From NCBI GenBank assembly GCA_001281695.1, contig LJIE01000001.1, forward strand, positions 1,098,586 to 1,130,585: a stretch of DNA of 32,000 bases. The letters run 5' to 3'. Shown piece by piece: positions 3,063 through 19,469 of this stretch. A program made the position numbers and the translations under genes. Within the stretch, counting starts at the first letter, position 1, and every line of letters begins with the position of its first letter. Origin of the DNA: a bacterium 336/3 (GTDB taxonomy: Bacteria; Bacteroidota; Bacteroidia; Cytophagales; Thermonemataceae). The notes beneath the pieces were generated by a model. That model was given only the letters and a program-made list of their open reading frames with translations, was not told the DNA's origin and ran no database searches.

Positions 3063-6000
3063 TTAGAAACTATATCTCAAACCAAATTGAGCTTGCCATA
3101 CAGAACGAATACTTGTAGAATTCAAGAATTTATTAAATCCAGCTTTTGCATCTTCAATTACAACACTACCATTTGCTTCCTGACGAGCAGAAACAACTTC
3201 TATATCGCTGTTGAAACGATACAAAATGTTTCCAGTTAAATTATCATAAGAAACAGCTTGGACTGGGTTGGTTCTACCAAATTGGATAAGTCCCCAGTTT
3301 TTATTCAATAAATTTCCAACATTAATAATATCCCAAGTGATTTGTACTTGATGCTTCATTTTTTTGCTTGGAGCATTGACTGTATGAGTAAAACGTACAT
3401 CAAAACGATGATTCCAAGGAGCAACAGCACCATTACGTTCTGCAAACTGTCCTCTACGATTTTTTAAACTTTTTTCACTTTCAATAAAGCTATTGAATCC
3501 TTCCCATTGTTTGTCTGATGTAAGAGTATAAGAAGCTGTACGAATAAGCTCTCCATTAGTATTGGTAAATCCAAAACGGCTTACATCTACATCTCTTGAG
3601 TGGTTTTGGAATTGAATTTCAGATGCATTACGAGGAACATAAATTAATTCGTTGTTGTTGATACCATCTAAATTGATGTCTGTTACAGTACCACCAGAAG
3701 CAGTTGCTACTAAGAAAGAATAATTGTTACCCATTTGTCCATTATAGAACATGGCTAATTGAGAAGTACCATATTCATTCCAATTTTTTGTATAACCAAA
3801 TGCTACAATAGCTCTATGACGAACATTGAAATCACTTTCTGCAACCAATGGTGTGTTAGGGCTGTTAGCACCTGTTCTTGTTAAGTTAAAGTTAGAAGAT
3901 GAAACTGAGTTTGTCGCACTCAAAGCATCTTTAGCAATAGAATAAGTATAAGCTACATTACCAAAAAAGTTCTTAGCATTTTTACGTAATTGAGCTGTTG
4001 CACTATACTGCAAACCTGCATTCGTATTTTCAAGAACATAAACACCCGTAAAATTTGCAGGATCAATTAAACGAGGACCTTGTCCAAATGTTCCAAATAT
4101 GGGTCTATTTTCGTTATTCAATACACCTTGCTGACCAGCCAAGTTAATATTTCTAAAGTACATATCATTCAATGTTCTTGTATAAATAAACTCTGCTGTA
4201 CCTACTAAGCCCCAAGGCAATTTTTGGTCAACACCTAAACTTGTACGAAATACTTGGGGTAAACGTAAGTTAGGATTGGTAAGGTTTACAAGAGATGTTC
4301 CACCTTGAACGCCTGCTCCAGGAGGTAAATAATTAGGATTTGTTAAAATAGCATCTCTTTGAGCTTGTGTCAAACCTGTAAAAATAGCATTCAATTGTCC
4401 TTGATCTTGGATGTTTACTTGTCCAAAATCTACACCACTATTGCTATATTGGTTAGAAAGCCATACAAAAGGAGGGCGACCAGCAAAGATACCAGTACCA
4501 CCACGAACTTGTGTTTTACCATCACCTTTTACATCCCAATTGAATCCAACTCTTGGAGACCAAAGAATCTTAGGAGAGGGGGTTTCATCATTACGAATAC
4601 CAAATTGTTCTTCAAATAAAGGATTTCTGCTTACATCACCTAACATTACTGGTAAATCACCACGTACGCCTAACGTGAGGCGAAGTTTATCATTTACATT
4701 CCACTCATCCTGAATATATAAGCCAAATTGTACAGCTGCCCATTTAGCACTTTGTCTACTATCAGATGTTCTAGAATAATTCTTTAAATAACTAATAGGT
4801 ATACCAGACTCTAAACTAAAATTAGGAGCAGTAGGATCTACTTGTCCAGTTACTGGATCTCTTGGTGCAAATACAGAAGCAAATCCCCACTCACCAGCAG
4901 CAGCCTGAATAAATAAGTTGTCAAAGAAATATAATTCATTTCTTGTTCCAAATAACAAGGTATGTTTTCCTTTAAACCAAGTGAAATGGTCTGTAATTTC
5001 TACCAAATTTTGACGGAGACTATTTGCTCCTCTAATTCTGTCTAAACCTGTTACAACTGTACCAATAGTTGCATTGTTTACACGCATACTTGGAAAATCT
5101 CTACCTTCATTGTCACTCAAATCATAAATATTGGTATAACCTAATCTGAATTCATTACTCATTTTGTTGTTAAAACGGCTTTGAATTTCAAAAACAGTGG
5201 TATTAGTTGTGTTTGTGATACGATAGCCAGAACTTGGAAAAGAATAAGTTGTACTACCTCTGAAAATTTCTTGAGAAAAAGCTCTAATAAAATTATGACG
5301 GAGCGTAAGAGTGTGTTTATCACTTAAGTTAAAATCCAAACGACCAAATATTTTATTATTATTTTGGATATTATCAAATGTACTGGCAGGATCTCCAGGA
5401 TCATAGTTAAATTTCTGAATATGAATATTACGAATGTCATTTAATTCTGTAATAAGATTATTAAGAATAGCAGGATTACTTCTAGTAAAGAATGGCAACT
5501 CAAATAAGTTTGGTTCTGTACGTCTGCCAATTTCGCCATTTACAAAGAAAAATAATTTATTCTTCAAAATAGGACCACCTACTCTAAATCCATACTGGTT
5601 GTCTTTAAAATTTGTAACAGTAAGTGTTCCATCTCCAATACGTCTTCCTACTAAATCCTGATTTTTGAGAAATGTATAAACAGAACCTTCAATTTCGTTT
5701 GTACCACTACGAGTTACAGCATTTACACCACCACCAATAAAACCACTCTGACGAACATCATAAGGAGCAATAATTACCTGAATTTCTTTGATAGCATCTA
5801 AGCTAACAGGTTGAGAACCAGTTCTTCCGCCAGGTGTTCCTCTGTCATTCAAACCAAAAACGTCATTGTTTACAGCACCATCAATCATTACATTGTTGAA
5901 ACGGTTGTTTTGTCCTGCAAAGGAAAGTCCTCCATTTGCCTGAGCTGAAAACTGAGGAGTTAATCTCACAAAATCATCTAAACCTCTTGAAATAGTAGGT

Positions 6001-6452
6001 AAAGAGTTGATTTCTTCGTTGGAGATGTTAGTAGAAGCTCCTGTTCTAGAGGCATCAAATATTTTATCTTTTGTTCCAACAACCTCAATACCAGAAATTT
6101 CCTGATTGTCTTCAGCCAATGAAAAATTTAGTTTAAGGGTTTGTCCCAGTTGTAAAGAAATATTGGATTGCTTATTGGTTTTATAGCCTATCGCCTCAAT
6201 AGTGATGGTATATGGACCTCCAACTCTTACATTTGGTAGAAAATAAGCACCATTTTCGTCAGTTACTGAGCCATATTTAGTGCCTGTTGGTTCGTGAATA
6301 GCAATAACAGTAGCACCTGCAATAACTTGATTTTTAGTATCTTTTGCTGTACCTGTTACAGATGCAGTTGTTATCCCTTGCCCCTGAACATTCAAACTTG
6401 CAAATACTAAAATACATGCATAGGTTAGGTAAAGTAGAATTTTTCGATTCAT
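3063..6452 (-). CDS. TonB-dependent outer-membrane receptor with N-terminal carboxypeptidase-regulatory-like domain (1129 aa); no SusD-like partner
   Basis: Signal peptide MNRKILLYLTYACILVFASLNVQGQ. A CarboxypepD_reg-like segment follows (VTGTAKDTKNQVIAGATVIAIHEPTGTKYGSVTDENGAYFLPNVRVGGPYTITIEAIGY), then plug-like and long beta-barrel regions ending in an aromatic terminus ...QFGLRYSF. I chose the start at M43 of the track ORF because a -7 box lies inside the longer extension. Confidence 0.9.
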   Translation of the reverse strand: MNRKILLYLTYACILVFASLNVQGQGITTASVTGTAKDTKNQVIAGATVIAIHEPTGTKYGSVTDENGAYFLPNVRVGGPYTITIEAIGYKTNKQSNISLQLGQTLKLNFSLAEDNQEISGIEVVGTKDKIFDASRTGASTNISNEEINSLPTISRGLDDFVRLTPQFSAQANGGLSFAGQNNRFNNVMIDGAVNNDVFGLNDRGTPGGRTGSQPVSLDAIKEIQVIIAPYDVRQSGFIGGGVNAVTRSGTNEIEGSVYTFLKNQDLVGRRIGDGTLTVTNFKDNQYGFRVGGPILKNKLFFFVNGEIGRRTEPNLFELPFFTRSNPAILNNLITELNDIRNIHIQKFNYDPGDPASTFDNIQNNNKIFGRLDFNLSDKHTLTLRHNFIRAFSQEIFRGSTTYSFPSSGYRITNTTNTTVFEIQSRFNNKMSNEFRLGYTNIYDLSDNEGRDFPSMRVNNATIGTVVTGLDRIRGANSLRQNLVEITDHFTWFKGKHTLLFGTRNELYFFDNLFIQAAAGEWGFASVFAPRDPVTGQVDPTAPNFSLESGIPISYLKNYSRTSDSRQSAKWAAVQFGLYIQDEWNVNDKLRLTLGVRGDLPVMLGDVSRNPLFEEQFGIRNDETPSPKILWSPRVGFNWDVKGDGKTQVRGGTGIFAGRPPFVWLSNQYSNSGVDFGQVNIQDQGQLNAIFTGLTQAQRDAILTNPNYLPPGAGVQGGTSLVNLTNPNLRLPQVFRTSLGVDQKLPWGLVGTAEFIYTRTLNDMYFRNINLAGQQGVLNNENRPIFGTFGQGPRLIDPANFTGVYVLENTNAGLQYSATAQLRKNAKNFFGNVAYTYSIAKDALSATNSVSSSNFNLTRTGANSPNTPLVAESDFNVRHRAIVAFGYTKNWNEYGTSQLAMFYNGQMGNNYSFLVATASGGTVTDINLDGINNNELIYVPRNASEIQFQNHSRDVDVSRFGFTNTNGELIRTASYTLTSDKQWEGFNSFIESEKSLKNRRGQFAERNGAVAPWNHRFDVRFTHTVNAPSKKMKHQVQITWDIINVGNLLNKNWGLIQFGRTNPVQAVSYDNLTGNILYRFNSDIEVVSARQEANGSVVIEDAKAGFNKFLNSTSIRSVWQAQFGLRYSF

Positions 6453-6494
6453 AAGAATTTTAATAGAATAATTAGACATTTCTTTCCAAAAGTG

Positions 6495-6502
6495 CAAAGT
6501 TA
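6495..6502 (-). promoter_or_regulatory. Candidate -7 box for the receptor gene (TAACTTTG on the minus strand)
   Basis: Plus-strand CAAAGTTA is the reverse complement of TAnnTTTG. It lies 43 nt upstream of the ATG at 6452. Confidence 0.5.
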
Positions 6503-6624
6503 CAATATATGTACTGATTGCCAAGACTTCTTCTATTAATTTATCATTAACACTTCTCAAAAACTTTGTAAAAGACATGTAAGTTTTAAGTAAATTAAGA
6601 AAAAAATAAATAATTTTTTCTTCT

Positions 6625-6632
6625 TATCTTTG
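6625..6632 (+). promoter_or_regulatory. Candidate -7 box for the Endonuclease I gene (TATCTTTG)
   Basis: Exact TAnnTTTG match 22 nt upstream of the ATG at 6654. It overlaps the TTG used as the start in the ORF track, which argues against that upstream start. Confidence 0.55.
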
Positions 6633-6653
6633 CGACAAAAAAAAGATACCCTG

Positions 6654-9308
6654 ATGAAAAAATATTACTGCTTATGGTTGGTAGCTTTTATAAGCTTAAC
6701 CCTTCATGCCCAGATACCCGCAGGATACTATAATACTGCGACAGGTACAGGATACACCTTGAAAACACAATTATATAATATTATTAAGAATCATACAGTG
6801 GTTTCTTATGGTACATTGTATTCTTGTTATCAAGGTACCTATAATGGTAATGCAACAGATAAAAAGCCAAATGGAAAAGTTTGGGATATGTATTCGGACA
6901 TTCCAAACGGAACACCTCCTTATGAATATAATTGGAATCAAACTTGTGGCAGCTATTCAAATGAAGGTGATTGCTTTAATAGAGAACACTCCTTACCTCA
7001 GTCTTGGTTTAATTCAGCTTCACCAATGGTTTCTGATTTATTTCATGTTTATCCTACAGACGGGAAAGTCAATGGTATCAGAAGCAATTTTCCTTTTGGA
7101 ACAGTAACCAATCCTACACAAACCACCCAAAATGGGAGTAAATTGGGGCCTTGTTCATTTGCTGGTTACACAAGTACTGTGTTTGAACCAAGAGATGAAT
7201 ACAAAGGTGACTTTGCTCGTACATATTTTTATATGGCTACTCGTTATGAAGATGTAATAGCTGGTTGGCAAACTAATGGTAATGCTGATAATGTGTTTAA
7301 TGGAACATCCAATCAAGTTTTTGATACTTGGCAATTAAATTTATTATACCAATGGCATATTCAAGACCCTGTAAGTCAAAAAGAAATAGATAGAAACAAT
7401 GCTATTTACACTATCCAAAATAATAGAAACCCTTACATAGACCGTCCTGAGTGGGTAGCTACTATTTGGGGTTTTGGTCCTGTTTCTCCTGCTGTAAATT
7501 TTGCAAGTGCAACAGGCTCTATACAAGAGCCTGCTTCAGGAACAAGAACTTATTCTGTAAATATTTTAGCTAATACAACAGCCAATAACCCTTTTACTGT
7601 AAATATTTCTGTGGATGGAGCAGGTTCTACAGCAGCAACACCCAGTGATTATACTTTTTCTACGACTTCTGTAACTTTTACAGGTTCAGAAACTTCTAAA
7701 ACAATTCAGGTAACTGTAAATAGCGATGGAAATACAGAACCTGATGAAACATTGAAGTTAGTTTTATCATCACCTACCAATGGAATGGCTCTTGGAGGTA
7801 CAACAGCTCATACCATAACAATAAAAGATGTTTCTGCTACAACTTCTACCGTTGAAACTTTTGACCCTTGTACAAATCTGAATACATGGAAAGCTTTTAG
7901 TGTAACAGGTACTCAAGTATGGGCATGTACTACAAGTGGGTTTGGTGGAACAAGTGGAGCTCAAATGAATGGATTTAGTGGCTCTGCTCAAAATAATGAA
8001 GATTGGCTCATCTCACCTGCTCAAACAGTTACAGCTACATCAAAAATATCATATCGTTCAAGAGCAGATTTCTCTGGACCTGTTTTAGAATTATTTGTTT
8101 CATCAAATTACTCAGGTTCAGGAACACCTACTGCAGCTACTTGGACGAAAATAAATACAGCCACTTTTGCAATACCTTCGGGTAATTCTGCTGGAACATG
8201 GGTTTATACACAAGACCTTGATATTTCTGCTTATACAGGTGCCAATCGTTATTTTGCATTCAAATATACTTCTACTACTGGTACAAATACAGCAGCTCGT
8301 TGGACTTTAGATGATATTGGTTTTTCAGGAAATTCTGGTTCTGTGGGCATTCCTCCAGCATTAATGGCAACTGGCAGTCTTGTGAATTTTGGTAGTATTG
8401 TTGTAGGTTTGACATCTACAAATCAAAGTTTTGTAGTTTCAGGAACCAATTTAACAGGAGATGTAGCTGTAGAGGCACCTGCTAATTTTCAGGTTTCTAA
8501 AGATGGTATAACTTTTAGTAGTACTATTATATATGTGTCAGGTACAGATTTTACATTACCAACACTTACTAATAAAACTGTATATATTCGTTTTGCTCCA
8601 AACTCGGGTGTTGATGGCTCTAAAGATGGAGATGTAGCAATTAGTTCGCCATTAGCATCTACTATATATTTGACTGCTGAGGGTACAGAAACAGGTAATG
8701 GTTCTGCTCAAATACAGTTTAAAGGCATAACAAGTGATGTGGTAGAAGGTAATAATAAAATTGTATTGCTGGATATTAGCCCTGCTCCTACAAGATTAAC
8801 ATCTTTTACAGTTAAAACCAGATTTTTGGGTGGAATCTCAATGGATGATTTTACAAGTACTCCTAATTTGAACACAACAGATTCTACTTTTACGATTAAT
8901 ATCCCTATAGGAGCAACACAAAGTTCCTTCATTATCAATGCAAAACAAGATACTCAAACAGAAACAAATGAAGCTTTAGAGTTCAGAATAATAGGAACAG
9001 CAGCAGGTTTGAGTTCAGCAGGACAAATTACACATAGACTTAATTTCTTGGATACTGATGTAACTGCTATTGATGATTATATTTCTGAAAATACAGTATT
9101 ATATCCAAATCCATCCTCAGAAATGTTGTATATCAGAACACCTTTAGAGCAATATACAATCGAAATAGTTGATGTTTTGGGTAAAAAAATAGATACATTC
9201 AATACATCCAGAGAAATCAATCTGAAAAATTTTACGGAAGGGGTTTATTTTGTAAAACTCAAAACTGATGGAGGAGTTGTAACTAAAAGACTAATTATCA
9301 AAAGATAA
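6654..9308 (+). CDS. Secreted Endonuclease I family nuclease with Calx-beta-like, choice-of-anchor-J/MAM-like and Ig-like modules and a T9SS type-A C-terminal sorting domain (884 aa)
   Basis: Signal peptide MKKYYCLWLVAFISLTLHAQ. Endonuclease I family motifs are FNREHSLPQSWF, HVYPTDGKVNGIRSNFPFG, FEPRDEYKGDFARTYFYMATRY and NRNPYIDRPEW. A Calx-beta-like pattern is present (TPSDYTF...VTFTGSETSKTIQVTVNSDGNTEPDETLKLVL). The CTD reads YPNPSSEMLYIRT...GVYFVKLKTDGGVVTKRLIIKR. Confidence 0.85.
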   Translation: MKKYYCLWLVAFISLTLHAQIPAGYYNTATGTGYTLKTQLYNIIKNHTVVSYGTLYSCYQGTYNGNATDKKPNGKVWDMYSDIPNGTPPYEYNWNQTCGSYSNEGDCFNREHSLPQSWFNSASPMVSDLFHVYPTDGKVNGIRSNFPFGTVTNPTQTTQNGSKLGPCSFAGYTSTVFEPRDEYKGDFARTYFYMATRYEDVIAGWQTNGNADNVFNGTSNQVFDTWQLNLLYQWHIQDPVSQKEIDRNNAIYTIQNNRNPYIDRPEWVATIWGFGPVSPAVNFASATGSIQEPASGTRTYSVNILANTTANNPFTVNISVDGAGSTAATPSDYTFSTTSVTFTGSETSKTIQVTVNSDGNTEPDETLKLVLSSPTNGMALGGTTAHTITIKDVSATTSTVETFDPCTNLNTWKAFSVTGTQVWACTTSGFGGTSGAQMNGFSGSAQNNEDWLISPAQTVTATSKISYRSRADFSGPVLELFVSSNYSGSGTPTAATWTKINTATFAIPSGNSAGTWVYTQDLDISAYTGANRYFAFKYTSTTGTNTAARWTLDDIGFSGNSGSVGIPPALMATGSLVNFGSIVVGLTSTNQSFVVSGTNLTGDVAVEAPANFQVSKDGITFSSTIIYVSGTDFTLPTLTNKTVYIRFAPNSGVDGSKDGDVAISSPLASTIYLTAEGTETGNGSAQIQFKGITSDVVEGNNKIVLLDISPAPTRLTSFTVKTRFLGGISMDDFTSTPNLNTTDSTFTINIPIGATQSSFIINAKQDTQTETNEALEFRIIGTAAGLSSAGQITHRLNFLDTDVTAIDDYISENTVLYPNPSSEMLYIRTPLEQYTIEIVDVLGKKIDTFNTSREINLKNFTEGVYFVKLKTDGGVVTKRLIIKR

Positions 9309-9316
9309 AATTACTG

Positions 9317-9354
9317 AGCCTTGAAACCTAATTAATAAGTTTCAAGGCTTTGTT
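9317..9354 (+). terminator. Rho-independent terminator after the Endonuclease I gene
   Basis: AGCCTTGAAAC (9317-9327) pairs with GTTTCAAGGCT (9339-9349) and is followed by TTGTT. Confidence 0.6.
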
Positions 9355-9401
9355 ATGTGTTTTAATAACATACAATTAACAACTAATCCAAAAACATTTC
9401 A

Positions 9402-9409
9402 TAATTTTG
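9402..9409 (+). promoter_or_regulatory. Candidate -7 box (TAATTTTG) for the 1156-aa gene
   Basis: Exact TAnnTTTG match 41 nt upstream of the ATG at 9450. Confidence 0.5.
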
Positions 9410-9449
9410 CGAGCATTTTTACTTTAGTATTCAACAAACAAAGTTTTAT

Positions 9450-12400
9450 ATGAAACAAAAAAATTACACAAGTCTTATACTACTCCTTTGCTTATGGGTA
9501 TTAGGTGTAGGCAATGTGAAAGGACAAATACTTACAGAACAGTTTAATTATGGAGCAGTATCTGATAGTCTCAGCTTTATTTCTGGAACAGTATGGAATG
9601 GACATAGTTTAGGAGGAGCTTCTTTAACCAATCCAATTCAATATGTAGCTGGTTCAAATTTGAGTTTGGGTTCTTACCCTACCTTGGGAGGCAAAGTGAC
9701 TTTTACTACATCAGGGCAAGATATTAATAGTACATTGTCTTCTGCGGTTACATCTGGGACACTGTATTATTCTTTTTTGGTAAATATTACAAGTGCACAG
9801 ACAGCAGGAGATTATTTTATTCATACAGGACCAAGTCCAATAGGTAGTGGTTTTAATAATAGAGTTTTTGCTCGTTTAAGTGGTGGAAATTTACAATTTG
9901 GTATTCAAAAAACTAGTACAGGTCCTGCAACTTATGGAACAAATAACTATTCTACAGGTACAACTTATTTAATAGTTGTTAAATATCAGTTTAATACAGG
10001 AAGCACTACAGACGATGTATCTAGTCTATATGTATTTACTACTACAGCTCCTTTGACAGAACCTGGTGCAACAGAAGCAACAAATAGTGCAGGAACTGAC
10101 CCTACATCACTCCAAACCATAGCCATCAGACAGGGAACAGCTGCAAATGCTCCTGCTGGAGAAATAGATTATATACGTGTGGGTACAACTTGGGCAGATG
10201 TTACATCTGTACCTTCTGCTACACCTACTATCACTTTAGGTTCTACAAGTTTAACAGGTTTTACTACTACTGTGGGAACACCTTCAACAGCACAACAATA
10301 CGGAGTATCTGGTTCAAACCTTACAGGTTTTCCTAGTGATATAGTAGTGACAGCTCCCACAGGTTATGAAGTATCATTGACATCAGGCTCTGGATTTTCA
10401 GGTTCTGTGAATGTGGCTTATACAAGTGCAACACTTTCTAACACAACAATCTTTGTAAGAATAGCAGCGAGTGCAAGTGTTGGTTCACCCAGTGGAAATA
10501 TTACCAATGCAGGTGGTGGAGCAACTACCCAAAATGTAGCTGTAAGTGGTACTGTAAATGCTCCTCCAGCTACACTCACAGTGAACCCTACAAGTTTGAG
10601 TGGTTTTACAACAGTAACAGGCACAGCATCAACTGAACAATCTTATACTTTGAGTGGCACAGATTTAACAGGTTTCCCAGCTAATATTACAGTAACAGCA
10701 CCCACAGGTTATGAAGTATCATTGACATCAGGTTCTGGTTTTGCGGGTTCTGTGAATGTGGCTTATGCAAGTGCAACACTCTCTAACACAACAATTTTTG
10801 TAAGAATAGCAGCGAGTGCATCAGTAGGCTCTCCTAGTGGAAATATCACCAATGCAGGTGGTGGAGCAACCACTCAAAATGTTGCTGTAAGTGGAAATGT
10901 AAACCCATTAACTCCTACATTGAATGTAAATCCAACATCTCTTTCAGGCTTTACAACAATTACAGGCACAGCATCAGCAGAGCAATCTTATACCTTAAGT
11001 GGAACAAACTTAACAGGCTTCCCTGATAACATACTAGTTACAGCCCCTACGGGTTATGAAGTATCATTGACATCAGGCTCTGGATTTGGAGGTTCTGTGA
11101 ATGTGGCTTACACCAGTGCAACACTTTCTAATACAACTATTTTTGTAAGAATAGCAGCGAGTGCAAGTGTTGGCTCACCTAGTGGAAATGTTACCAATGC
11201 AGGTGGTGGAGCAACTACCCAAAATGTAGCTGTAAGTGGTACTGTAAATCCTGTTCCTACACCAACATTAACAGTAAATCCAACAAGTTTAAGTGGCTTT
11301 ACCACAACAGCAGGTACAGCATCAGCTAATCAATCATATACATTGAGTGGAGTTAATTTAACAGGTTTTCCTAGTAATATAGTAGTGACAGCACCCACAG
11401 GTTATGAAGTATCATTGACATCAGGTTCTGGATTTGGAGGTTCTGTGAATGTGGCTTACACCAGTGCAACACTTTCTAACACAACAATCTTTGTAAGAAT
11501 AGCAGCTAGTGCAAGTGTTGGTTCACCAAGTGGAAATGTTACCAATGCAGGTGGTGGAGCAACTACCCAAAATGTAGCAGTAAGTGGTACTGTAAATGCA
11601 GCACCTACAGTAGTACCTATTGCAAATATTCGTAATGCGATAGATGGAAGTGGAGCACAAGTCGCTCCTTATGCTGCTGGTACAGCAGTCATGATACAAG
11701 GACAAATTTATGGTGTAAATAGAAATATTGATGCAACTGTAGCCAATGGTACAAAGCAAAAATTTGAATTCACAGTGATAGATAATAGTACAGGTAGAAA
11801 TGGTATTGTGATACGTTCAACAGGAACAGTGGATATTGCCCCTGTTGATATGTTGGAAGGAGATAACATCACAGTATCAGGAACAGTGAGTCAATTTAAT
11901 GGTTTAACTCAAATTACAGCTACTTCTGTAACAAGAAATAGCACAGGTAACACTCGTAAAACACCTGTGAGTGCTACTGTAATTGCAGAAAATGAAGAAT
12001 CTCAATTGATTAGACTTACAGGGGTTACAGTAACGGCTTGGCCTACACTTCCTCATACAGGTTCGGGTGTGAATGCAACTATTACTGTGGGTGCAAATAC
12101 TTATACGCTTCGTATTACATCTGCAAGTGAACTATTTAATAAATCAGTAACAGACGTTTTTGGTACTGGAGCAACTCTGCCTGTAAATAATGTAACTATG
12201 GTTGGTTTAGGAGGTCAGTTTGATAATGCTTCTCCTTTTGATTCTGGTTATCAGTTATTTGTAACGAAACTTTCTGATGTAACCATTCCACCTCCAATTA
12301 TTCCTGCAATTAGTACAAATGCACCCAGCACAGGTTTAGATTTCGGAAATGTTGCTAAAAATACTGTTTCAACATCTCAAACTTATAAACTGATAGGTAA

Positions 12401-12920
12401 AGATTTGCCTACTACAGGTTCTAATTTGAATGTAGTTGTAAATGTTCCTAATAATTTTCAAGTATCTAAAAATAATACAGATTTCTTCTCTACAATTTCT
12501 TTTACAAATGCAGAAGTAAATAATGCAGGAACCACAGGTTTGGATGTATATGTTCGTTTTGCACCAGTATCTGACATTGATGGAGCCAAAGGTGGAGATG
12601 TAACACACTCTGTACCTTCAATTGTTCCTACTCTTAATGCGAATGTTGCTGTAAAAGGTGTACAAACAGCACCATTGAGTATTGCAGATGAACTTGCAAG
12701 TCAAGTAAACATTTATCCTAATCCTACAAATGGAATGACTATTAAAATAGATGCTCCTCAAGATTTTGTAGTTGAAATGTTAGATATAACAGGTAGAAAA
12801 GTGGCTAATTTTAATAGTTCTGAGCCTAAATTATCAGATAATTTACCTAATGGATTGTATTTCTTGCAATTTAGCAATGGAACTACTAAGTTTGTAAAAC
12901 GTTTGGTTATACAAAAATAA
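9450..12920 (+). CDS. Large secreted T9SS-cargo protein with no recognisable catalytic domain
   Basis: Signal peptide MKQKNYTSLILLLCLWVLGVGNVKGQ. An N-terminal beta-sandwich-like region is followed by four tandem ~115-aa Ig-like repeats (see the repeat feature). A bipartite OB-like module at about 11611-12285 (VIDNSTGRNGIVIRS...EGDNITVSGTVSQFNGLTQI...LIRLTGVTV...GGQFDNASPFDSGYQLFVTKLSDV) parallels the N-terminal module of the next gene. A fifth, diverged Ig-like module follows. The CTD reads IYPNPTNGMTIKI...GLYFLQFSNGTTKFVKRLVIQK. I found no nuclease, peptidase or glycosidase motif. Confidence 0.8.
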   Translation: MKQKNYTSLILLLCLWVLGVGNVKGQILTEQFNYGAVSDSLSFISGTVWNGHSLGGASLTNPIQYVAGSNLSLGSYPTLGGKVTFTTSGQDINSTLSSAVTSGTLYYSFLVNITSAQTAGDYFIHTGPSPIGSGFNNRVFARLSGGNLQFGIQKTSTGPATYGTNNYSTGTTYLIVVKYQFNTGSTTDDVSSLYVFTTTAPLTEPGATEATNSAGTDPTSLQTIAIRQGTAANAPAGEIDYIRVGTTWADVTSVPSATPTITLGSTSLTGFTTTVGTPSTAQQYGVSGSNLTGFPSDIVVTAPTGYEVSLTSGSGFSGSVNVAYTSATLSNTTIFVRIAASASVGSPSGNITNAGGGATTQNVAVSGTVNAPPATLTVNPTSLSGFTTVTGTASTEQSYTLSGTDLTGFPANITVTAPTGYEVSLTSGSGFAGSVNVAYASATLSNTTIFVRIAASASVGSPSGNITNAGGGATTQNVAVSGNVNPLTPTLNVNPTSLSGFTTITGTASAEQSYTLSGTNLTGFPDNILVTAPTGYEVSLTSGSGFGGSVNVAYTSATLSNTTIFVRIAASASVGSPSGNVTNAGGGATTQNVAVSGTVNPVPTPTLTVNPTSLSGFTTTAGTASANQSYTLSGVNLTGFPSNIVVTAPTGYEVSLTSGSGFGGSVNVAYTSATLSNTTIFVRIAASASVGSPSGNVTNAGGGATTQNVAVSGTVNAAPTVVPIANIRNAIDGSGAQVAPYAAGTAVMIQGQIYGVNRNIDATVANGTKQKFEFTVIDNSTGRNGIVIRSTGTVDIAPVDMLEGDNITVSGTVSQFNGLTQITATSVTRNSTGNTRKTPVSATVIAENEESQLIRLTGVTVTAWPTLPHTGSGVNATITVGANTYTLRITSASELFNKSVTDVFGTGATLPVNNVTMVGLGGQFDNASPFDSGYQLFVTKLSDVTIPPPIIPAISTNAPSTGLDFGNVAKNTVSTSQTYKLIGKDLPTTGSNLNVVVNVPNNFQVSKNNTDFFSTISFTNAEVNNAGTTGLDVYVRFAPVSDIDGAKGGDVTHSVPSIVPTLNANVAVKGVQTAPLSIADELASQVNIYPNPTNGMTIKIDAPQDFVVEMLDITGRKVANFNSSEPKLSDNLPNGLYFLQFSNGTTKFVKRLVIQK
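10227..11610 (+). repeat. Four in-frame tandem coding repeats, period 345/345/348 bp
   Basis: The identical 26-mer GGTTATGAAGTATCATTGACATCAGG recurs at 10362, 10707, 11052 and 11400. The translated units are about 115 aa each and highly similar. Confidence 0.92.
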
Positions 12921-12927
12921 AAAATAC

Positions 12928-12962
12928 ATAAGTCTTGGGAATATTCATTTCCCAAGACTTAT
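12928..12962 (+). terminator. Hairpin (possible terminator or attenuator) between the repeat-protein and PLD-nuclease genes
   Basis: ATAAGTCTTGGGA (12928-12940) pairs perfectly with TCCCAAGACTTAT (12950-12962). The trailing T tract (TTCAT) is weak, so read-through is plausible. Confidence 0.5.
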
Positions 12963-12985
12963 TTCATAAAGCAAACAAATCTAAT

Positions 12986-15382
12986 ATGAAAAAAATATAC
13001 TTTTTTGTATTCTTTCTTGTGATAGGAAAGGCTTTCGCTCAAGTAGAGCCAATAGGAACAGCAAGAGTGAAATCGAATGGTAGTGTGGTTACAGTAACTG
13101 GAATAGTTACTAATGATGCTGCTCATGATAACCGTAATAGGAACCGTTGTTTCCAAGATGCTACGGGTGGTTTAAATATTTTTGCTCAAAACTCTGCCAC
13201 TGCACCAACATTACAATCTCTTAAACCTGGTGATAGTGTTGTTGTAACAGGGACACTTGCAGAATTTAATAATTTGAAGCAACTAGTAGAGCCACTTACA
13301 ATAACAAGAGTTGCAGAAAATAAAACAGTGCCTAAAGCAAGAGTTGTAACTATTGCTGAATTACAGAATCCCGCAGTAGCAGAACTTCTTGAAAGTATGT
13401 TGGTTAGAGTAGAAGATGTTGTATTTGATACTGGAGATGCTATTTTTGGAAGTGGTACAGCAGGAAGAAGCTATGATTTTGACGACCCTAAAAGTCCTGT
13501 AAGTGGTAACTGTTTTCCAGTATCAGCAGATTGTAACAATGGTCCAATATACAGAATAAACCCAGGAAATCCTTTGGTTGGAACTGATATTCCTAAAGGA
13601 ACAGTTAGTTTATCAGGTTATTTAGGGCAATTTGCTGCTGCATACCAAATTACAGCAAGAGGAAGACAAGATTTAGAGTTAGGTTTAGTGATAGAAAATG
13701 TATTGCAAGAATCTATTAAACTAAATTCATTCAAATTAACCTTTACAACCAATCAAAAAGCGAAAACTCGTGTACGTTGGGGAAGTATTTTCCTAGTAGA
13801 TGTTAGTACAACCGACCCTACAAACTATGTAGCAAATTATGATACGACTTTTGTGGGTGAAACCAATATCACAGACCTAAATACAAATCATGAAATTAAT
13901 ATTACAGGTTTGAATGAAGCATCATTGTATTTTGTAGAGATTTTTTGTCAGAATGCTGAGGGGAATAAAAACACAATAGTTGGTGATGTATATGCAACGG
14001 CATCTCAATCAACAGGAGATATTAAAGTGTTTTTTAATAGAACTGTAGATGGATCTTTTTCTCGTAATGGTGCTGTACCATTTGTTACTACTGATATGGC
14101 TCAAGTAATAGCTGACTATATCAATAAAGCTCAAGTTTCTGTAGATGTTTCAATATACAATGCTAATACTGCTGGAGCTACTAAAATTGCAACAGCATTG
14201 AACAATGCTCAAACGAGAGGCGTACAAGTAAGATATATCTTTGGTGGCGAATCTGCGAATACAGCTAACACTTTGATACCTAATATTTTGAAAATGCGTG
14301 ATAGAAATACTGGTGGAGATGCTGCATTACAAAGAACAGGAACAGGTAATCATAATAAATTTGTTGTAATAGACCCTAATAGTACTCTTAACTCTTATGT
14401 GATAACAGGTTCTGGAAACTATACAGATAATAACTTATTTACAGACCCTAATAACTTTTTAGTCATTCAAGATCAAACATTGGCTCGTGCTTATAGAACA
14501 GAATTTGATGAAATGTGGGGAGAAGGACCTGTGAGTTTGGCAAACCCTGATCGTCAGAAAAAATCTCGTTTAGGAGCTCAAAAAATTAAAAATACACCTT
14601 CTAAATTTGTAATTGGTGATAGAGTAGTAGAACTGGCATTTTCACCTAGTGATAAAACTACCAATACTATCCGTAAAGCAATCTATAGTGCTGATAATGA
14701 TGTTCGTTTTGGATTACTTCTTATAACATCAGACGACTTACGTACACCTTTGGATTCTATGCAAAATGTAGGATGGGACGTAAAAGGTCTCATTGATGAT
14801 GAAAATGCTGTGGCTGAGACATCTCCATTGGTTCAAGGAAGTGATTTTGTTTGGTTAAGAGATAAAGGTGTCAATGTAAATGCTTATGTAAGTTCTACAA
14901 GTCAGTTACACCACAAATATGTGGTAATAGATGCAGTCCGTACTAATTCTGATCCTCAAGTAGTTACGGGTTCTCATAACTGGTCTTCAGGAGCTGAAAC
15001 ATCAAATGATGAGAATACTCTTATCATTCATGATGCTAAAATTGCCAATATGTATCGCCAAGAGTTTGGGCAACGTTGGTTTGAAGCAACAGGAATTAGA
15101 GATGCTTATGTATTGGCTTTAGACGAACCCACAAACGAAAAAGGTGCTGTTATCTATCCAAACCCATCACAAGGTGTATTCAAAATCCAATTTGATAGAG
15201 TTGTAAATTCAGAAATTCATGTGAAAGTTGTTGATTTACAAGGTAAGACCATAGAAAATCAAATAATAAATATGGATAGCTCACAATTTGAAATGGAAAC
15301 TAATCTACCAAAAGGTATGTATGTTTTACAAATTCGTGTAGGCGAAAAGACATTTACTCGTAAAATGGTGGTTACCAAATAA
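12986..15382 (+). CDS. Secreted PLD-superfamily (two-HKD, Nuc-like) nuclease with N-terminal OB-like module, FN3-like domain and T9SS type-A CTD (798 aa)
   Basis: Signal peptide MKKIYFFVFFLVIGKAFAQ. The OB-like module reads VVTVTGIVTNDA...CFQDATGGLNIFAQ...PGDSVVVTGTLAEFNNLKQL...LVRVEDVVF...GYLGQFAAAYQITARGRQDLE. HKD motif 1 is GNHNKFVVID...TGSGNYT (His codon at 14351). HKD motif 2 is LHHKYVVID...TGSHNWSSGAETSNDENTLIIHD (His codon at 14909). The CTD reads IYPNPSQGVFKIQF...GMYVLQIRVGEKTFTRKMVVTK. The track's TTG start at 12935 lies inside the upstream hairpin, so I prefer the ATG at 12986. Confidence 0.85.
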   Translation: MKKIYFFVFFLVIGKAFAQVEPIGTARVKSNGSVVTVTGIVTNDAAHDNRNRNRCFQDATGGLNIFAQNSATAPTLQSLKPGDSVVVTGTLAEFNNLKQLVEPLTITRVAENKTVPKARVVTIAELQNPAVAELLESMLVRVEDVVFDTGDAIFGSGTAGRSYDFDDPKSPVSGNCFPVSADCNNGPIYRINPGNPLVGTDIPKGTVSLSGYLGQFAAAYQITARGRQDLELGLVIENVLQESIKLNSFKLTFTTNQKAKTRVRWGSIFLVDVSTTDPTNYVANYDTTFVGETNITDLNTNHEINITGLNEASLYFVEIFCQNAEGNKNTIVGDVYATASQSTGDIKVFFNRTVDGSFSRNGAVPFVTTDMAQVIADYINKAQVSVDVSIYNANTAGATKIATALNNAQTRGVQVRYIFGGESANTANTLIPNILKMRDRNTGGDAALQRTGTGNHNKFVVIDPNSTLNSYVITGSGNYTDNNLFTDPNNFLVIQDQTLARAYRTEFDEMWGEGPVSLANPDRQKKSRLGAQKIKNTPSKFVIGDRVVELAFSPSDKTTNTIRKAIYSADNDVRFGLLLITSDDLRTPLDSMQNVGWDVKGLIDDENAVAETSPLVQGSDFVWLRDKGVNVNAYVSSTSQLHHKYVVIDAVRTNSDPQVVTGSHNWSSGAETSNDENTLIIHDAKIANMYRQEFGQRWFEATGIRDAYVLALDEPTNEKGAVIYPNPSQGVFKIQFDRVVNSEIHVKVVDLQGKTIENQIINMDSSQFEMETNLPKGMYVLQIRVGEKTFTRKMVVTK

Positions 15383-15403
15383 TCCTAAAAAGTATTTAAA
15401 GAT

Positions 15404-15829
15404 ATGAAAAGAAATCTTATATATTTGTTTTTTGTAGCTCTGATAGCTATTTCTTGTAAAGAGGCAAAAGTTGTAGAGCCATTGACATTGTCACAGACTA
15501 TCCAAAAAATGTGGAAAATTAAAAGCGTACAAGTTACAGAAAATGGCTTGCCTGCTGATAATTTAACTGTATACAATGGGTTTACGATAGAGTTTGTAGG
15601 AGAAAAATACTATGTAAGCAATGGTAATGATGCTTTCCCAAATAGCCAAGGGCTTTGGGGCTTTAACGACCCCAATTTAAATACTATCGAATTTGATGGA
15701 GGAGTTATAGCAACTGTAAGTAAGTTTAATGCAAGTGAGCTAAATTTTACCTTCACACGTAAAGGTAGTACTGTAAATGGTAGAATTCCTGATAGAACTT
15801 TTACCTTTGAATTAGTGGCTTTTAAATAA
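15404..15829 (+). CDS. Small lipoprotein, lipocalin-like (141 aa)
   Basis: Signal peptide with Cys (MKRNLIYLFFVALIAISC|KE). The beta-rich small protein carries a WKIKSVQVTENG...ELNFTF pattern typical of lipocalin-like Bacteroidota lipoproteins. It starts 21 nt after the PLD gene stop, so it is probably co-transcribed. Confidence 0.65.
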   Translation: MKRNLIYLFFVALIAISCKEAKVVEPLTLSQTIQKMWKIKSVQVTENGLPADNLTVYNGFTIEFVGEKYYVSNGNDAFPNSQGLWGFNDPNLNTIEFDGGVIATVSKFNASELNFTFTRKGSTVNGRIPDRTFTFELVAFK

Positions 15830-15959
15830 AAGGAAATATAGGTTTTTGCCTAAAAAACAAAATTTTTTTCTGAAAAAATTATGATTGTTTTTAGAAAATA
15901 TTTTATATTGCATTAAATTATTGAGACTTCTCTATTTAAAATTTAAAAAAAGTAACGTT

Positions 15960-16397
15960 ATGAAAAATACGAAAATTTTACTATTCCTAATGCTTCTTGG
16001 TGTTGTTTTTTCTGCTGGTAAATGTAAGAAAAAAGATAAGGATGAAAATCCTGTTGGTGTAAAAGGTAATTGGAAAATTACTGCTATTACTAATAGTGCT
16101 AATCAGACTCCAGCTAATTTAACTTCTTTATTAGAGGGTACATTTACTGGTGGTGATACAAGCTATGAGTTTAAAAATAATTCTGGTACTAGTGTAGAAA
16201 GTGGTTCTTATACTTATGATGCTACTGCTAACACTTTAAGCTTTACACCTAGTGGAACATCAGTATTTACAGGTGGTGCAACTGCTTATACAGCTAAAAG
16301 CACACTTACATCTACAACACTTCAGTTGGTTGTAAACATTGCTGCTCCTAGCAAACCAGAAAACAACCTTACTATCAGTCTTACAAAACAACAATAA
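15960..16397 (+). CDS. Small secreted protein or lipoprotein, lipocalin-like (145 aa)
   Basis: The internal ATG at 15960 gives the signal peptide MKNTKILLFLMLLGVVFSAGKC followed by KKKDKDENP. GNWKITAITN...LSFTPSG is lipocalin-like. It is T/S/G-rich. The lipobox is non-canonical (K at -1). Confidence 0.6.
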   Translation: MKNTKILLFLMLLGVVFSAGKCKKKDKDENPVGVKGNWKITAITNSANQTPANLTSLLEGTFTGGDTSYEFKNNSGTSVESGSYTYDATANTLSFTPSGTSVFTGGATAYTAKSTLTSTTLQLVVNIAAPSKPENNLTISLTKQQ

Positions 16398-16419
16398 GAT
16401 ATTGATAACCAAGCAAAAA

Positions 16420-16449
16420 GGCGAAATTTTTAAAAATTTCGCCTTTTTT
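16420..16449 (+). terminator. Rho-independent terminator closing the nuclease/lipoprotein gene run
   Basis: Perfect 24-nt palindrome GGCGAAATTTTTAAAAATTTCGCC (16420-16443) followed by TTTTTT (16444-16449). Confidence 0.7.
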
Positions 16450-16699: not shown

Positions 16700-19072
16700 G
16701 TGCTTGTACAAAAAAGAGATGGTCGTTTGGAGTCAGTAAAATTTGACAAGATTACTGCCCGTATCGAGAAATTGTGCTATGGCTTAAACATGAAATATGT
16801 TGAGCCCGTGGAAATCGCCAAGCGTGTTATCAATGGAATTTATGACAAAATTCCTACAACTGTTTTAGATGAATTGGCTGCTCAAATGGCTGCTTCTCTT
16901 ACTACGGTTCACCCAGATTATGCAATATTAGCAGCTAGGATAGCTATTTCTAATTTGCATAAAGAAACCAGTAAGTCTTTTTCAAATACAATGAAAAGAC
17001 TTTATGAGTACATTGATCCTAAAACAGGCGAAAATGCAGGACTGATAGCTAAAGATGTTTATGAAGTAATCAGAAAGAATGCAGCTCTTTTAGATTCTTC
17101 TATTATCTATGATAGAGATTATCAGTATGACTATTTTGGCTTCAAAACACTGGAAAGATCGTATCTTTTACGTACAGATGGTAAAGTAGCAGAACGCCCT
17201 CAACACATGTTGATGCGTGTGGCTGTTGGTATTCATAAAGATGATATTGATGCTGCCATAGAAACGTATAATTTGCTTTCTGAGAAGTGGTTTACGCATG
17301 CAACGCCTACACTATTCAATGCAGGTACACCTAAGCCACAACTTTCTTCATGTTTCTTATTAACTATGAAGGGAGATTCTATTGATGGAATTTATGATAC
17401 TTTAAAGCAATGTGCTAAGATTTCTCAGTCAGCTGGCGGAATAGGTTTAGCTATCCATAATATCAGAGCAACAGGCTCTTATATTAAGGGAACGAATGGA
17501 TATTCTAATGGAATTATCCCTATGCTTAAAGTATTTAATGATACAGCTCGTTATATTGATCAAGGTGGAGGAAAGCGTAAAGGTGCATTTGCTATTTATA
17601 TAGAGCCTTGGCATGCTGATGTAATGGATTTCTTACAATTACGTAAAAATCATGGTGCAGAAGAATTGAGAGCAAGAGATTTATTTTATGCACTTTGGAT
17701 TTCTGATTTATTCATGAAGCGTGTAGAAGCCAATGAAACATGGTCTTTGTTCTGCCCTAATGAAGCTCCTGGACTTTCAGATTGTTATGGAGATGAATTT
17801 GAAAGACTTTATGAAAAATATGAGTCTGAGGGTAAAGCAAGAAAAGTTGTAAAAGCTCAAGACTTATGGTTTGAAATTCTTGAATCTCAAATAGAAACAG
17901 GAAATCCTTATATTTTATTTAAGGATGCAGCCAATAAAAAATCTAATCAGAAGAATTTGGGTACAATCAAGTCGTCAAACTTATGTACTGAAATTATGGA
18001 ATATACTGCTCCTGATGAAGTGGCTGTATGTAATTTGGCTTCTTTGGCATTGCCCAAGTACATCAACAATGGTAAATTTGACCATCAACGTTTGTATGAA
18101 GTAACCAAAGTTATTACCAAAAACTTAAATAAAATTATTGACATCAACTATTACCCTGTTCCTGAAGCAGAGCGTAGTAATAAACGTCACCGTCCTATTG
18201 GTATTGGTGTACAAGGTTTGGCGGATGTATTTATTATGCTGCGTATGCCTTTCGATTCGGATGAGGCAAGAGGTTTAAATAAAGATATTTTTGAAACTAT
18301 TTACTATGCTTCTTTAGAGGCTTCTATGGAAATAGCAAAAGAGAAGGGATATTACGAAACATATCCAGGTTCTCCTATTTCACAAGGTATTTTCCAATTT
18401 GATATGTGGGGTGTAAAACCTTCGTCTGGTCGTTGGGATTGGGAAGCTTTGAGAGCTAAAATTTTAGAAAATGGCGTAAGAAACTCTTTGTTACTTGCTC
18501 CTATGCCAACAGCTTCTACGTCTCAAATTTTGGGTAATAACGAATGTTTTGAGCCATACACAAGCAATATGTACACTCGTAGAGTGCTTTCTGGAGAGTT
18601 TGTGGTAGTAAACAAACATTTACTCAACGATTTAATTGAGCTTGGTTTGTGGAATGAAAATATGAAAAACAAGCTCCAAGCTGCTGAAGGCTCTGTTCAG
18701 AACATCAAAGAAATTCCTGAGAATATCAAGGAAATTTATAAAACTGCTTGGGAATTGAAGCAAAAATCTATTTTGGAAATGGCAGCAGATAGAGGTGCTT
18801 TCATTTGTCAAAGTCAAAGTTTGAATGTGTTTGTTACAGAACCTAATTTTGGAAAACTGACTTCTATGCATTTTTATGCTTGGAAGCTTGGACTTAAAAC
18901 AGGTATGTATTACTTACGTACACAAGCTGCAAGCAGTGCTATTAAATTTACTGTGGATACAAATGTATTACAAGAACAAAACACTCAAGAGTTGGTATCT
19001 GTTGAACAAAAACAAAAAGATATGATGTGCTCATTGGATGATCCAGATAGCTGTGAGGCTTGTGGAAGCTAA
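16700..19072 (+). CDS. nrdA: Ribonucleoside-diphosphate reductase large (alpha) subunit, class Ia, eukaryote-like, with N-terminal ATP-cone
   Basis: 790 aa. The N-terminus (M)[28 protein letters not shown] closely parallels the eukaryotic R1 ATP-cone. Core motifs are [25 protein letters not shown] and [19 protein letters not shown]. The C-terminal redox tail is [17 protein letters not shown] start. Confidence 0.95.
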
Positions 19073-19162: not shown

Positions 19163-19396
19163 ATGGAATTAAAAACCTATACAAAAAGCCAATTGGCATT
19201 ACGAAATGGGCAAGACAAACCTGAAATTTGGGTTGCATTTCAAGGAGTAATTTATGATGTAACCAAATCGAGATTGTGGAAAAATGGCAAACATTACGAA
19301 CATTGGGCTGGACAAGACTTAACTGAAGAGCTTGAAGATGCTCCACATACTGAAAAAGTATTTGAAAAATTTGATATGGTTGGGAAACTTGTCTAA
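19163..19396 (+). CDS. Cytochrome b5-like heme/steroid-binding domain protein (COG4892-type, 77 aa)
   Basis: YTKSQLALRNGQDKPEIWVAFQGVIYDVTKSRLWKNGKHYEHWAGQDLTEELEDAPH matches my recollection of the small bacterial predicted heme/steroid-binding proteins. Confidence 0.7.
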   Translation: MELKTYTKSQLALRNGQDKPEIWVAFQGVIYDVTKSRLWKNGKHYEHWAGQDLTEELEDAPHTEKVFEKFDMVGKLV

Positions 19397-19469
19397 ATAA
19401 ATATAGAAAAATTTTGAAAAAATAGTTTTTATAACGTTCTTAAACAATGAAACAAAAATCAACTTTAAT

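Follow-up and report, generated by a model that had tools for sequence, protein, structure and literature searches.

The locus described here is a cluster of five genes, g1, g2, g3, lipo1 and lipo2, at positions 6654-16397 on the plus strand of a 32,000-nucleotide stretch of contig LJIE01000001.1 from the Thermonemataceae bacterium 336/3 (assembly GCA_001281695.1). This whole stretch is called the window. The first three genes encode two predicted nucleases and a large non-catalytic protein, all with features of type IX secretion system (T9SS) cargo; the last two encode small lipoproteins, and g1 has as its divergent neighbour the gene of a TonB-dependent transporter (TBDT; table 1). An earlier, sequence-only reading had seen in this arrangement the logic of a polysaccharide utilization locus (PUL) applied to nucleic acids, and domain searches with Pfam and NCBIfam profile models placed the genes and domains where that reading had put them. 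The locus is real, conserved and well delimited. It is probably a cell-surface and extracellular DNA capture-and-degradation cluster of Raineya-like Bacteroidota, the products being imported via the TBDT. The affinity of the source is indicated by the g3 product, a phospholipase D (PLD)-superfamily protein 86% identical to that of a Raineya sp. metagenome-assembled genome (MAG) and 66% identical to that of R. orbicola. A survey of the phylum anchored on this protein, with one genome per species, yielded 80 loci.

Table 1. Features of the window, beginning with the genes of the cluster.
Feature	Positions	Strand	Description or evidence
g1, secreted Endonuclease I family nuclease (predicted)	6654-9308	+	884 aa from ATG; Pfam/NCBIfam, motifs
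g2, non-catalytic T9SS cargo	9450-12920	+	1156 aa; C-terminal sorting domain only, no enzyme family
Four tandem 345-nt repeats in g2 (115-aa Ig-like units)	10221-11558	+	79-85% identity to reference copy
DUF5689-like OB module of g2, ~residues 784-950	11799-12299	+	hhalign
g3, secreted PLD-superfamily (Nuc/NucT-like) nuclease (predicted)	12986-15382	+	798 aa; Pfam/NCBIfam, HKD motifs
lipo1, lipoprotein	15404-15829	+	141 aa; lipobox AISC, predicted eight-strand lipocalin-like barrel
lipo2, lipoprotein	15960-16397	+	145 aa; lipobox Cys, Lipocalin_4
Oar-type TBDT	3063-6452	-	1129 aa; CarboxypepD_reg + OMP_b-brl_4
Divergent control region	6453-6653		201 bp; Bacteroidota-type -7 motifs (TAnnTTTG)
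TAACTTTG, -7 motif for TBDT	6495-6502	-	Bacteroidota-type motif
TATCTTTG, -7 motif for g1	6625-6632	+	Bacteroidota-type motif
TAATTTTG, -7-type motif, 41 nt 5' of g2 start	9402-9409	+	Bacteroidota-type motif
Stable hairpin directly 3' of g1 stop	9317-9349	+	-17.4 kcal/mol, z -4.1
Stable 14-bp hairpin directly 3' of g2 stop	12928-12962	+	No T-run; -20.3 kcal/mol, z -7.4
Intrinsic terminator closing the cluster	16415-16448	+	15-bp stem + T-run; -16.6 kcal/mol, z -6.0
TonB C-terminal domain protein	1394-2134	+	246 aa; Pfam TonB_C 34.9 bits
266-aa protein, directly 3' of TBDT on same strand	2177-2977	-	No signal peptide
nrdA, class Ia ribonucleotide reductase large subunit	16700-19072		ATP-cone + ribonucleotide reductase domains

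The g1 product is a modular protein in which a signal peptide is followed, in order, by an Endonuclease I (EndoI) domain, a Calx-beta domain, a choice-of-anchor J domain, immunoglobulin-like (Ig-like) modules and a T9SS type-A C-terminal sorting domain (CTD). It matches the Endonuclease_1 profile (PF04231) over its full length (positions 1-235 of 235) at 294.1 bits against a cut-off of 25, and its relatives in the PDB are Vvn and Vibrio EndoI. The catalytic motifs REHSLPQSW, from residue 110, and VNGIRSN, from residue 139, correspond to EWEHVVPAW and VNGDRGN in Escherichia coli EndA. The blocks EH..P..W, VNGxRSN, EP, ARTYFYM and NRNPY align with the E. coli enzyme in a comparison that also took in the R. 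orbicola and Roseivirgaceae homologues; the EH block, which MAFFT had misplaced, was paired with EndA by eye. The full-length profile match, with the catalytic His and metal-binding Asn motifs present, bears out the family assigned earlier to the first cargo gene. EndoI enzymes are Mg-dependent, sugar-nonspecific endonucleases, and such a Mg-dependent nuclease activity is predicted for g1.

The second predicted nuclease, g3, is built from a signal peptide, a DUF5689 module (approximately residues 20-240; 37.5 bits against a cut-off of 28.6), a beta-sandwich, two HKD domains (H456 and H642) and a T9SS CTD. PLDc_2 is matched in two stretches (120 bits). The HKD motifs read HNKFVVID at 456 and HHKYVVID at 642, and no substitution of H, K or D in either HxK(x)4D motif occurs among 18 homologues, whose identities go down to 31%. 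With both motifs intact, the description of g3 as a Nuc-like enzyme with two HKD motifs is upheld; on alignment, the catalytic residues of g1 and g3 alike are unsubstituted. Solved relatives found by sequence are Nuc (1byr, E 4e-8) and Zucchini/MitoPLD. In NCBIfam, g3 is related to NucT and DrmC, in each case far under the equivalog cut-off, and at 39.6 bits against a cut-off of 297 it does not qualify as a NucT orthologue. Because of these relatives g3 is placed, by sequence, in the nuclease branch of the PLD superfamily, and it is not an orthologue of any named enzyme. PLD enzymes of the Nuc type cut nucleic acids without the need for a metal, by way of a phosphohistidine intermediate; NucT, from Helicobacter, is a PLD nuclease that has been linked to transformation.

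The DUF5689 module of g3 was modelled with AlphaFold2 (residues 1-245; 15-sequence alignment, pLDDT 84, pTM 0.79). The best PDB matches of the model are the HIN-200 domains of IFI16, p202, p204 and AIM2, followed by RPA70. Entries 4jbm (p202), 2oq0 and 3rn2 are among the matches, and several of the HIN-200 entries were solved with DNA. The TM-scores are modest (0.3-0.4) and therefore indicate a fold-class resemblance rather than proof of DNA binding. The module thus resembles the HIN/RPA-like class of tandem oligonucleotide/oligosaccharide-binding (OB) folds, and may bind DNA.

The intervening gene, g2, encodes a protein with a variable, beta-rich N-terminal domain, four 115-aa repeats, a DUF5689-like OB module, Ig-like modules and a CTD. 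No PDB entry was matched in a sequence search with g2, and Pfam searches at E up to 1 with its N-terminal domain, repeat unit and C-terminal modules gave no informative family. The OB module aligns with the DUF5689 N-terminus of the PLD family by hhalign at a probability of 97.5% (E 8.8e-12), and has a weak match to the N-terminus of ExeM/NucH. The earlier description of g2 as a non-catalytic 1156-aa protein with an OB-like module is consequently sound: there is no catalytic family, and hhalign demonstrates the module. By this profile comparison, the g2 module and the g3 N-terminus share ancestry, and g2 is proposed to be a surface DNA-binding protein. In other lineages its counterparts carry related domains. 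That of a Roseivirgaceae MAG (L021) is a 2040-aa protein with four choice-of-anchor J domains, two DUF5689 domains and DUF5017, and a partial counterpart on a metagenomic contig (L094) has DUF5017, an OB domain and a CTD. The length of g2 in relatives ranges from 1017 to 1156 aa, and in the L084 assembly the gene is broken into two open reading frames (ORFs); repeat-number variation or assembly collapse is the likely cause. The N-terminal domain (window 9525-10220) is represented by a different variant in L083 (6482-7300), the Raineya MAG with the 86%-identical PLD protein, and that variant resembles the version in a distant Raineyaceae MAG (L005), which points to the replacement or fast diversification of a surface-exposed module.

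The relationship between g2 and g3 bears on a reading in which only g1 has to do with nucleic acids, g3 being a lipid-acting phospholipase D that scavenges phosphorus from phospholipids and g2 a generic T9SS adhesin or gliding protein. The source annotation of g3 homologues ('phosphatidylserine/.../cardiolipin synthase-like enzyme') would agree with this, as would the repeat-rich build of g2, whose variable N-terminal domain is like that of many adhesins. Such a reading is nevertheless very improbable. The matches of g3 are to the nuclease branch (Nuc, Zucchini, NucT); an HIN/RPA-like tandem-OB module is fused to it, with a homologous module in g2; and it is linked here to Endonuclease I and, at other loci, to LTD/ExeM-like and endonuclease/exonuclease/phosphatase (EEP) proteins.

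The type-A CTDs of g1, g2 and g3 score 51.3, 42.3 and 44.5 bits, respectively, against TIGR04183, for which the cut-off is 23 bits (PF18962 is the related Pfam family). The signal peptides were read off the sequence, with no predictor run. The earlier assignment of all three as T9SS type-A cargo agrees with these scores. Cargo with type-A CTDs is secreted or attached to the cell surface, and export of g1-g3 by the T9SS is predicted. A 75-residue chain of PDB entry 8glk (chain D), named 'Endonuclease I', matches the CTD of g3 (residues 722-796), which suggests that structural studies have already made use of an EndoI CTD as a model T9SS substrate.

The lipo1 gene begins 21 nt past the end of g3. 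An AlphaFold2 model of its product (pLDDT 92.5) matches lipocalins and odorant-binding proteins with TM-scores up to 0.53. The protein itself has no Pfam match, and two of its homologues match Lipocalin_4. The family is small, with 49 cluster representatives in 1.84 billion proteins. The lipo2 product matches Lipocalin_4 (PF13648) marginally, at 23.6 bits against a cut-off of 22.4, and the two families align by hhalign at 92% (E 6e-7), as distant paralogues. With lipoboxes and lipocalin matches or a lipocalin-like model in hand, the two small lipocalin-like lipoproteins claimed to follow the PLD gene are accounted for. lipo1 is always the downstream neighbour of the window-type PLD subtype: a DUF5689-PLD-CTD gene lies directly 5' of it in seven lineages, and in an eighth, on a truncated contig, it comes after the end of a CTD protein. 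Counterparts of lipo2 occur in R. orbicola, Thermonema and L006.

At least five lineages retain the gene order, with identities of 35-66%, and the cluster is therefore more than a chance assembly. R. orbicola has EndoI, a g2-like gene, PLD, lipo1 and lipo2, and Thermonema the same series from the g2-like gene onwards. In two Raineyaceae MAGs a g2-like gene precedes PLD; one continues with lipo1 and lipo2, and the contig of the other stops right after the PLD gene. In L021 a tight same-strand array comprises a CTD protein, EndoI, a g2-like gene, PLD, a Lipocalin_4 lipoprotein and an Oar-type TBDT. L094, found via its lipo1 homologue, carries a g2-like gene, DUF5689-PLD-CTD, lipo1 and two Oar-type TBDTs. 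Two distant lineages thus have the PLD, lipoprotein and Oar-type TBDT genes side by side on one strand.

The window TBDT was correctly described as a large receptor divergent from g1. It matches CarboxypepD_reg (74.4 bits) and OMP_b-brl_4 (PF25183; 181.1 bits), and its homologues carry the source annotation 'TonB-dependent transporter Oar-like'. No protein of the window matches the SusC signature (TIGR04056/04057) or SusD, and a sequence search of the PDB with the TBDT gave no match. It is 44% identical to the first TBDT after PLD-lipo1 in L094 and 41% identical to the TBDT of L021. TBDTs import substrates using TonB, and this one is a candidate importer of degradation products. Some of its homologues lie near phosphate or nucleotide genes (L092 1012-16764, L089 163-4393, L091, L097). 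Two tandem homologues in Rufibacter adjoin oprP-pstSCAB-phoU, one homologue adjoins a cytidine deaminase gene, and two are near ppk, one of these also near ppx. These anecdotal cases hint at a phosphate or nucleotide role for the clade.

Linkage to transporters extends well beyond this type. Directly 5' of DUF5689-PLD, on the same strand, 33 of the 80 surveyed loci have a member of another TBDT family (about 950 aa, CarbopepD_reg_2 + Plug), and in 39 it lies within four genes. At 28 of these loci a protein with LTD and CTD, which is like the ExeM N-terminus, is also found upstream, in 27 cases at position -2. Loci of this kind are spread over Saprospiraceae, Cryomorphaceae, Crocinitomicaceae, other Flavobacteriales and Bacteroidia MAGs, and no published description of the LTD-CTD / TBDT / DUF5689-PLD triad was found; examples (from L008-L080) are L008:5803-12181 and L055:2066-9001. 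For Thermonema, the transporter is a SusC-like TBDT three genes downstream. The DUF5689-PLD family therefore recurs beside transporters of three types in various arrangements. This is the strongest argument for functional coupling, and the adjacency is hard to explain otherwise. A different kind of neighbour is seen at seven loci, where an Exo_endo_phos_3 gene (EEP nuclease/phosphatase; for example L036 8806-9843) adjoins PLD, in five of the seven at -1 and on the opposite strand. It is possibly an alternative second nuclease in place of Endonuclease I.

Domain content, catalytic motifs, predicted folds and synteny are the direct observations from which a mechanism can be proposed; nuclease activity, DNA binding, coupling to the transporter and physiological purpose enter it as predictions. 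(i) The g2 protein and the N-terminus of g3 would hold DNA at the cell surface, g2 presenting its putative DNA-binding module on a repeat stalk. (ii) The g1 and g3 enzymes would cut extracellular DNA under different ionic conditions. (iii) DNA fragments or nucleotides would then be passed to the Oar-type TBDT, probably with the aid of lipo1 and lipo2. (iv) The transporter would take these products into the periplasm. Scavenging of nutrients (phosphorus, nitrogen or nucleotides) is the most likely purpose of such a system.

The sequence-only reading knew of no described system of this composition. That view does not survive comparison with the literature. The closest precedent is the set of ddbABCDEF DNA-utilization loci of Bacteroides thetaiotaomicron and other gut Bacteroidales, explicitly called PUL-like (Sharan et al., PNAS 2025, PMC12478041). 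The ddb locus encodes three nucleases, the TBDT DdbC, the DUF5689 protein DdbD and DdbE; DdbD is modelled as a lid and likened to p202, and entry 4jbm is used to argue for DNA binding (PMC12478041). Both systems have secreted nucleases, a TBDT, a DUF5689 component with an HIN/p202-like fold and extra small surface proteins, and both are modular and variable between lineages. They differ in anchoring: the extracellular ddb components are lipoproteins processed by signal peptidase II, whereas here they are T9SS type-A CTD cargo with leaders of the signal peptidase I type. The DUF5689 lid of ddb stands alone beside its TBDT, whereas here DUF5689 is fused to PLD and embedded in the 1156-aa stalk protein. 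Set beside the ddb nucleases, those of the window are EndoI and PLD; ddb also has DdbB, a periplasmic nuclease of the signal peptidase I type, but the window lacks a third nuclease and its only lipoproteins are lipo1 and lipo2. The window TBDT is of the Oar type, divergent and separated from the DUF5689 genes by g1. The hosts are gut Bacteroidales on the one hand and an environmental, Cytophagia-like lineage on the other. To our knowledge, the lipoprotein-based ddb locus is so far the only genetically defined DNA-utilization system of Bacteroidota.

Further precedents concern single parts of the system. Phosphate depletion of Flavobacterium johnsoniae induces the Endonuclease_1 enzymes EndA1 and EndA2 together with TBDT/lipoprotein pairs, and the term PUL-like 'Pus' loci was coined there (Lidbury et al., ISME J 2020, PMC8115612). 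Extracellular Endonuclease_1 enzymes with accessory domains, a TBDT followed by small hypothetical lipoproteins, and PUL-like acquisition of organophosphorus are shared features. Unlike the genes of the window, EndA1 and EndA2 are 'orphan', with no transporter clustered, and no PLD nuclease or DUF5689 is reported (PMC8115612). A T9SS-secreted Endonuclease I of Riemerella anatipestifer, whose DNase and RNase activities were shown biochemically, is a virulence factor (Shen et al. 2023, as cited in PMC12398890). It is likewise a T9SS-exported EndoI, but in the account given there it was studied singly and not with a multi-gene locus of binders, lipoproteins and a TBDT. In Vibrio cholerae, Dns (an Endonuclease I) and Xds degrade extracellular DNA (eDNA) for phosphate and have roles in biofilm (PMC4714964, PMC3212620). 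These are also two mechanistically different secreted nucleases, but the secretion route, the second nuclease (an EEP exonuclease rather than PLD) and the uptake route differ, and they are not clustered with a TBDT. Classical SusC/SusD PULs similarly encode surface binding, surface hydrolysis and TonB-dependent import together; the window differs in lacking the SusC signature and SusD, in substrate and enzymes, and in T9SS anchoring. The TBDT lid families of Price et al. include no lipocalin, DUF5689 or DNA-related lids.

The main alternative is drawn from another of these precedents. In Riemerella anatipestifer the CarboxypepD_reg outer-membrane protein RA0C_RS04915 and RA0C_RS04920, which has choice-of-anchor J, DUF5689 and DUF5017 domains, are essential for natural transformation (PMC8459023), and the ddb locus was related by its authors to this pair (PMC12478041). 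By analogy, the locus might serve DNA uptake for transformation, with DUF5689 proteins capturing double-stranded DNA, PLD processing it and the TBDT passing it towards ComEC/DprA. Surface proteins with these three domains beside a CarboxypepD_reg TBDT, with a nuclease gene nearby, are common to both: in the window, g1 has choice-of-anchor J and both g2 and g3 have DUF5689, and the g2-like protein of L021 combines all three. Among named NCBIfam models, moreover, those of NucT come closest to the PLD protein. The likeness is nevertheless at the domain level, and the binders of the window bear T9SS CTDs and have degradative nucleases as fusion partners or neighbours. Two sugar-nonspecific endonucleases beside the receptor would destroy transforming DNA, the NucT score is far below the equivalog cut-off, and the window holds no com genes. 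The TBDT homologues beside pstSCAB-phoU, ppk/ppx and cytidine deaminase also fit nutrient salvage better. Transformation is for these reasons considered an unlikely function.

How the cluster is transcribed bears on whether it acts as a unit. The divergent control region and the terminator described earlier are both present, but the picture of one promoter region and one terminator is incomplete: further hairpins follow g1 and g2, and a promoter-like motif precedes g2. Candidate internal motifs are also found at 12887 and 15802. The TAnnTTTG motif turns up about once per 740 nt per strand, and the motifs are consistent with promoters without proving them. The position of the hairpin after g1 is kept in R. 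orbicola (with a T-run) and L083, and that after g2 in R. orbicola, L083 and L021, in each case with different sequences. Among these hairpins of the window and its relatives (L003 6755-6800 and 9950-9975, L083, L021 9868-9925), only some have a T-run. These elements may be terminators or mRNA-stability or processing elements. With hairpins after g1 and g2 and promoter-like motifs before both genes, a single operon is unlikely and was rejected as stated; judged from these signals, the cluster probably comprises two or three transcription units. In relatives with PLD proteins at 83-86% identity the divergent region is conserved at 91%, and phylogenetic footprinting was abandoned since such relatives are too close to resolve operators.

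Several observations weigh against a DNA capture-and-degradation cluster coupled to the TBDT. Given the hairpins and separate promoter motifs, co-regulation is no more than possible. R. orbicola has no TBDT within the locus. Outside the Raineya lineage, the proteins closest to the window TBDT (46-55% identity) are encoded among unrelated or housekeeping genes, and none of these homologues (P0128, P0130, P0131, P0132) has a nuclease gene near it, which weakens strict co-localization. No periplasmic nuclease, nucleotidase or inner-membrane transporter is encoded in the window. A search with the copy of the PLD-adjacent TBDT from a 'Chryseobacterium' MAG returned only unnamed environmental proteins and no named Riemerella or Bacteroides match, so that homology of any of these TBDTs to DdbC or RA0C_RS04915 is conjectural. 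The fold matches of DUF5689 are modest as well. Much of this would be expected if g1-g3 were independent secreted nucleases or adhesins, active in biofilm eDNA remodelling, competition or escape from DNA traps, with the TBDT, TonB and ribonucleotide reductase genes as unrelated neighbours: g1 and g2 are each preceded by a promoter-like motif and followed by a stable hairpin, R. orbicola retains the five genes without a TBDT, and the contexts of the closest TBDT homologues are mostly unrelated. Such roles also have parallels, as a Bacteroides homologue of DdbF is linked to biofilm formation (PMC12478041) and the Riemerella EndoI, as summarized in PMC12398890, to virulence. This explanation is likewise improbable, given that a TBDT adjoins the PLD family in many lineages, the transporters being of three types and variously arranged, and that the juxtaposition of lipoprotein and TBDT in L021 and L094 resembles known pairs of TBDTs and surface lipoproteins. 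The DNA capture-and-degradation reading thus keeps the intact nuclease motifs, the T9SS cargo, the binding modules and the recurrent TBDT linkage that made the PUL-like logic attractive. What falls away is a fixed link to the receptor, together with the single operon and the ribonucleotide reductase connection: synteny of cargo and lipoproteins is kept across lineages, but TBDT linkage is variable, as R. orbicola illustrates.

The idea of a DNA PUL is already known. What sets the present locus apart is the T9SS anchoring or secretion, the fusion of DUF5689 to PLD and its presence in a stalk protein, the obligate lipocalin lipoproteins and the Oar-type transporter. A wider proposal can be put forward tentatively, and is open to considerable doubt. 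The DUF5689-PLD-CTD nuclease, the obligate lipocalin lipoprotein and the Oar-type TBDT might constitute an undescribed, T9SS-dependent branch of Bacteroidota DNA-uptake machines, in which a DdbD-like DNA-binding lid forms part of a nuclease and is tied to the surface via the T9SS. Environmental Saprospiraceae, Flavobacteriales and Cytophagia would widely possess this branch, and for these abundant degraders it would be the main route of eDNA import for phosphorus or nucleotides, and in some lineages for transformation. Its nuclease also occurs elsewhere, in the LTD-CTD / TBDT / DUF5689-PLD triad. Sediments, hot-spring mats, sludge and soils contain much phosphorus, nitrogen and genetic information in the form of extracellular DNA, and Bacteroidota are major polymer degraders there; the window and its relatives suggest that environmental lineages build a ddb-like function from T9SS cargo with a DUF5689-PLD fusion. 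The PLD/TBDT linkage extends over dozens of species. If this linkage is confirmed, it would supply gene markers for eDNA turnover in metagenomes and a tractable test of the uptake of nucleic-acid fragments by a TonB-dependent transporter. The phylum-wide pairing of TBDT and DUF5689-PLD is the part most deserving of attention.

The genes flanking the system are more loosely associated with it. Scans of the window for Rfam families and tRNAs gave no match. The TonB-family gene noted earlier beyond the receptor is present, convergent with the 266-aa gene and the TBDT on the minus strand. Its product is peripheral and possibly energizes the TBDT, membership in the system being suggested by proximity alone. 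The 266-aa protein has no Pfam or NCBIfam match; genes of 267-269 aa occupy the equivalent position in the close relatives L084 and L086, equivalence being judged by length and position. The nrdA gene does lie immediately downstream of the cluster, as had been pointed out, but this adjacency is confined to close relatives of the window and absent in R. orbicola, where a cadherin/CHU_C protein takes its position, and in Thermonema and L021, which have other genes there; a link between ribonucleotide reductase and the system was rejected on this ground. No nrdB gene adjoins nrdA in the window. In the region 3' of nrdA (19163-25212), a 77-aa ORF occupies the position of a gene annotated as Cyt-b5 in relatives; also encoded there are a GPDPase_memb/DUF7847 membrane protein, a MoxR AAA+ ATPase and a histidine kinase of 1246 aa without a recognized sensor domain. 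The AT skew at 22001-23000 is -0.22. Further on, at 25249-29629 on the minus strand, an ABC-2-type membrane domain and an M1 peptidase domain are joined in one 1179-aa protein, an unusual fusion, and its gene overlaps the upstream ABC ATPase gene (28745-29629) by 44 nt.

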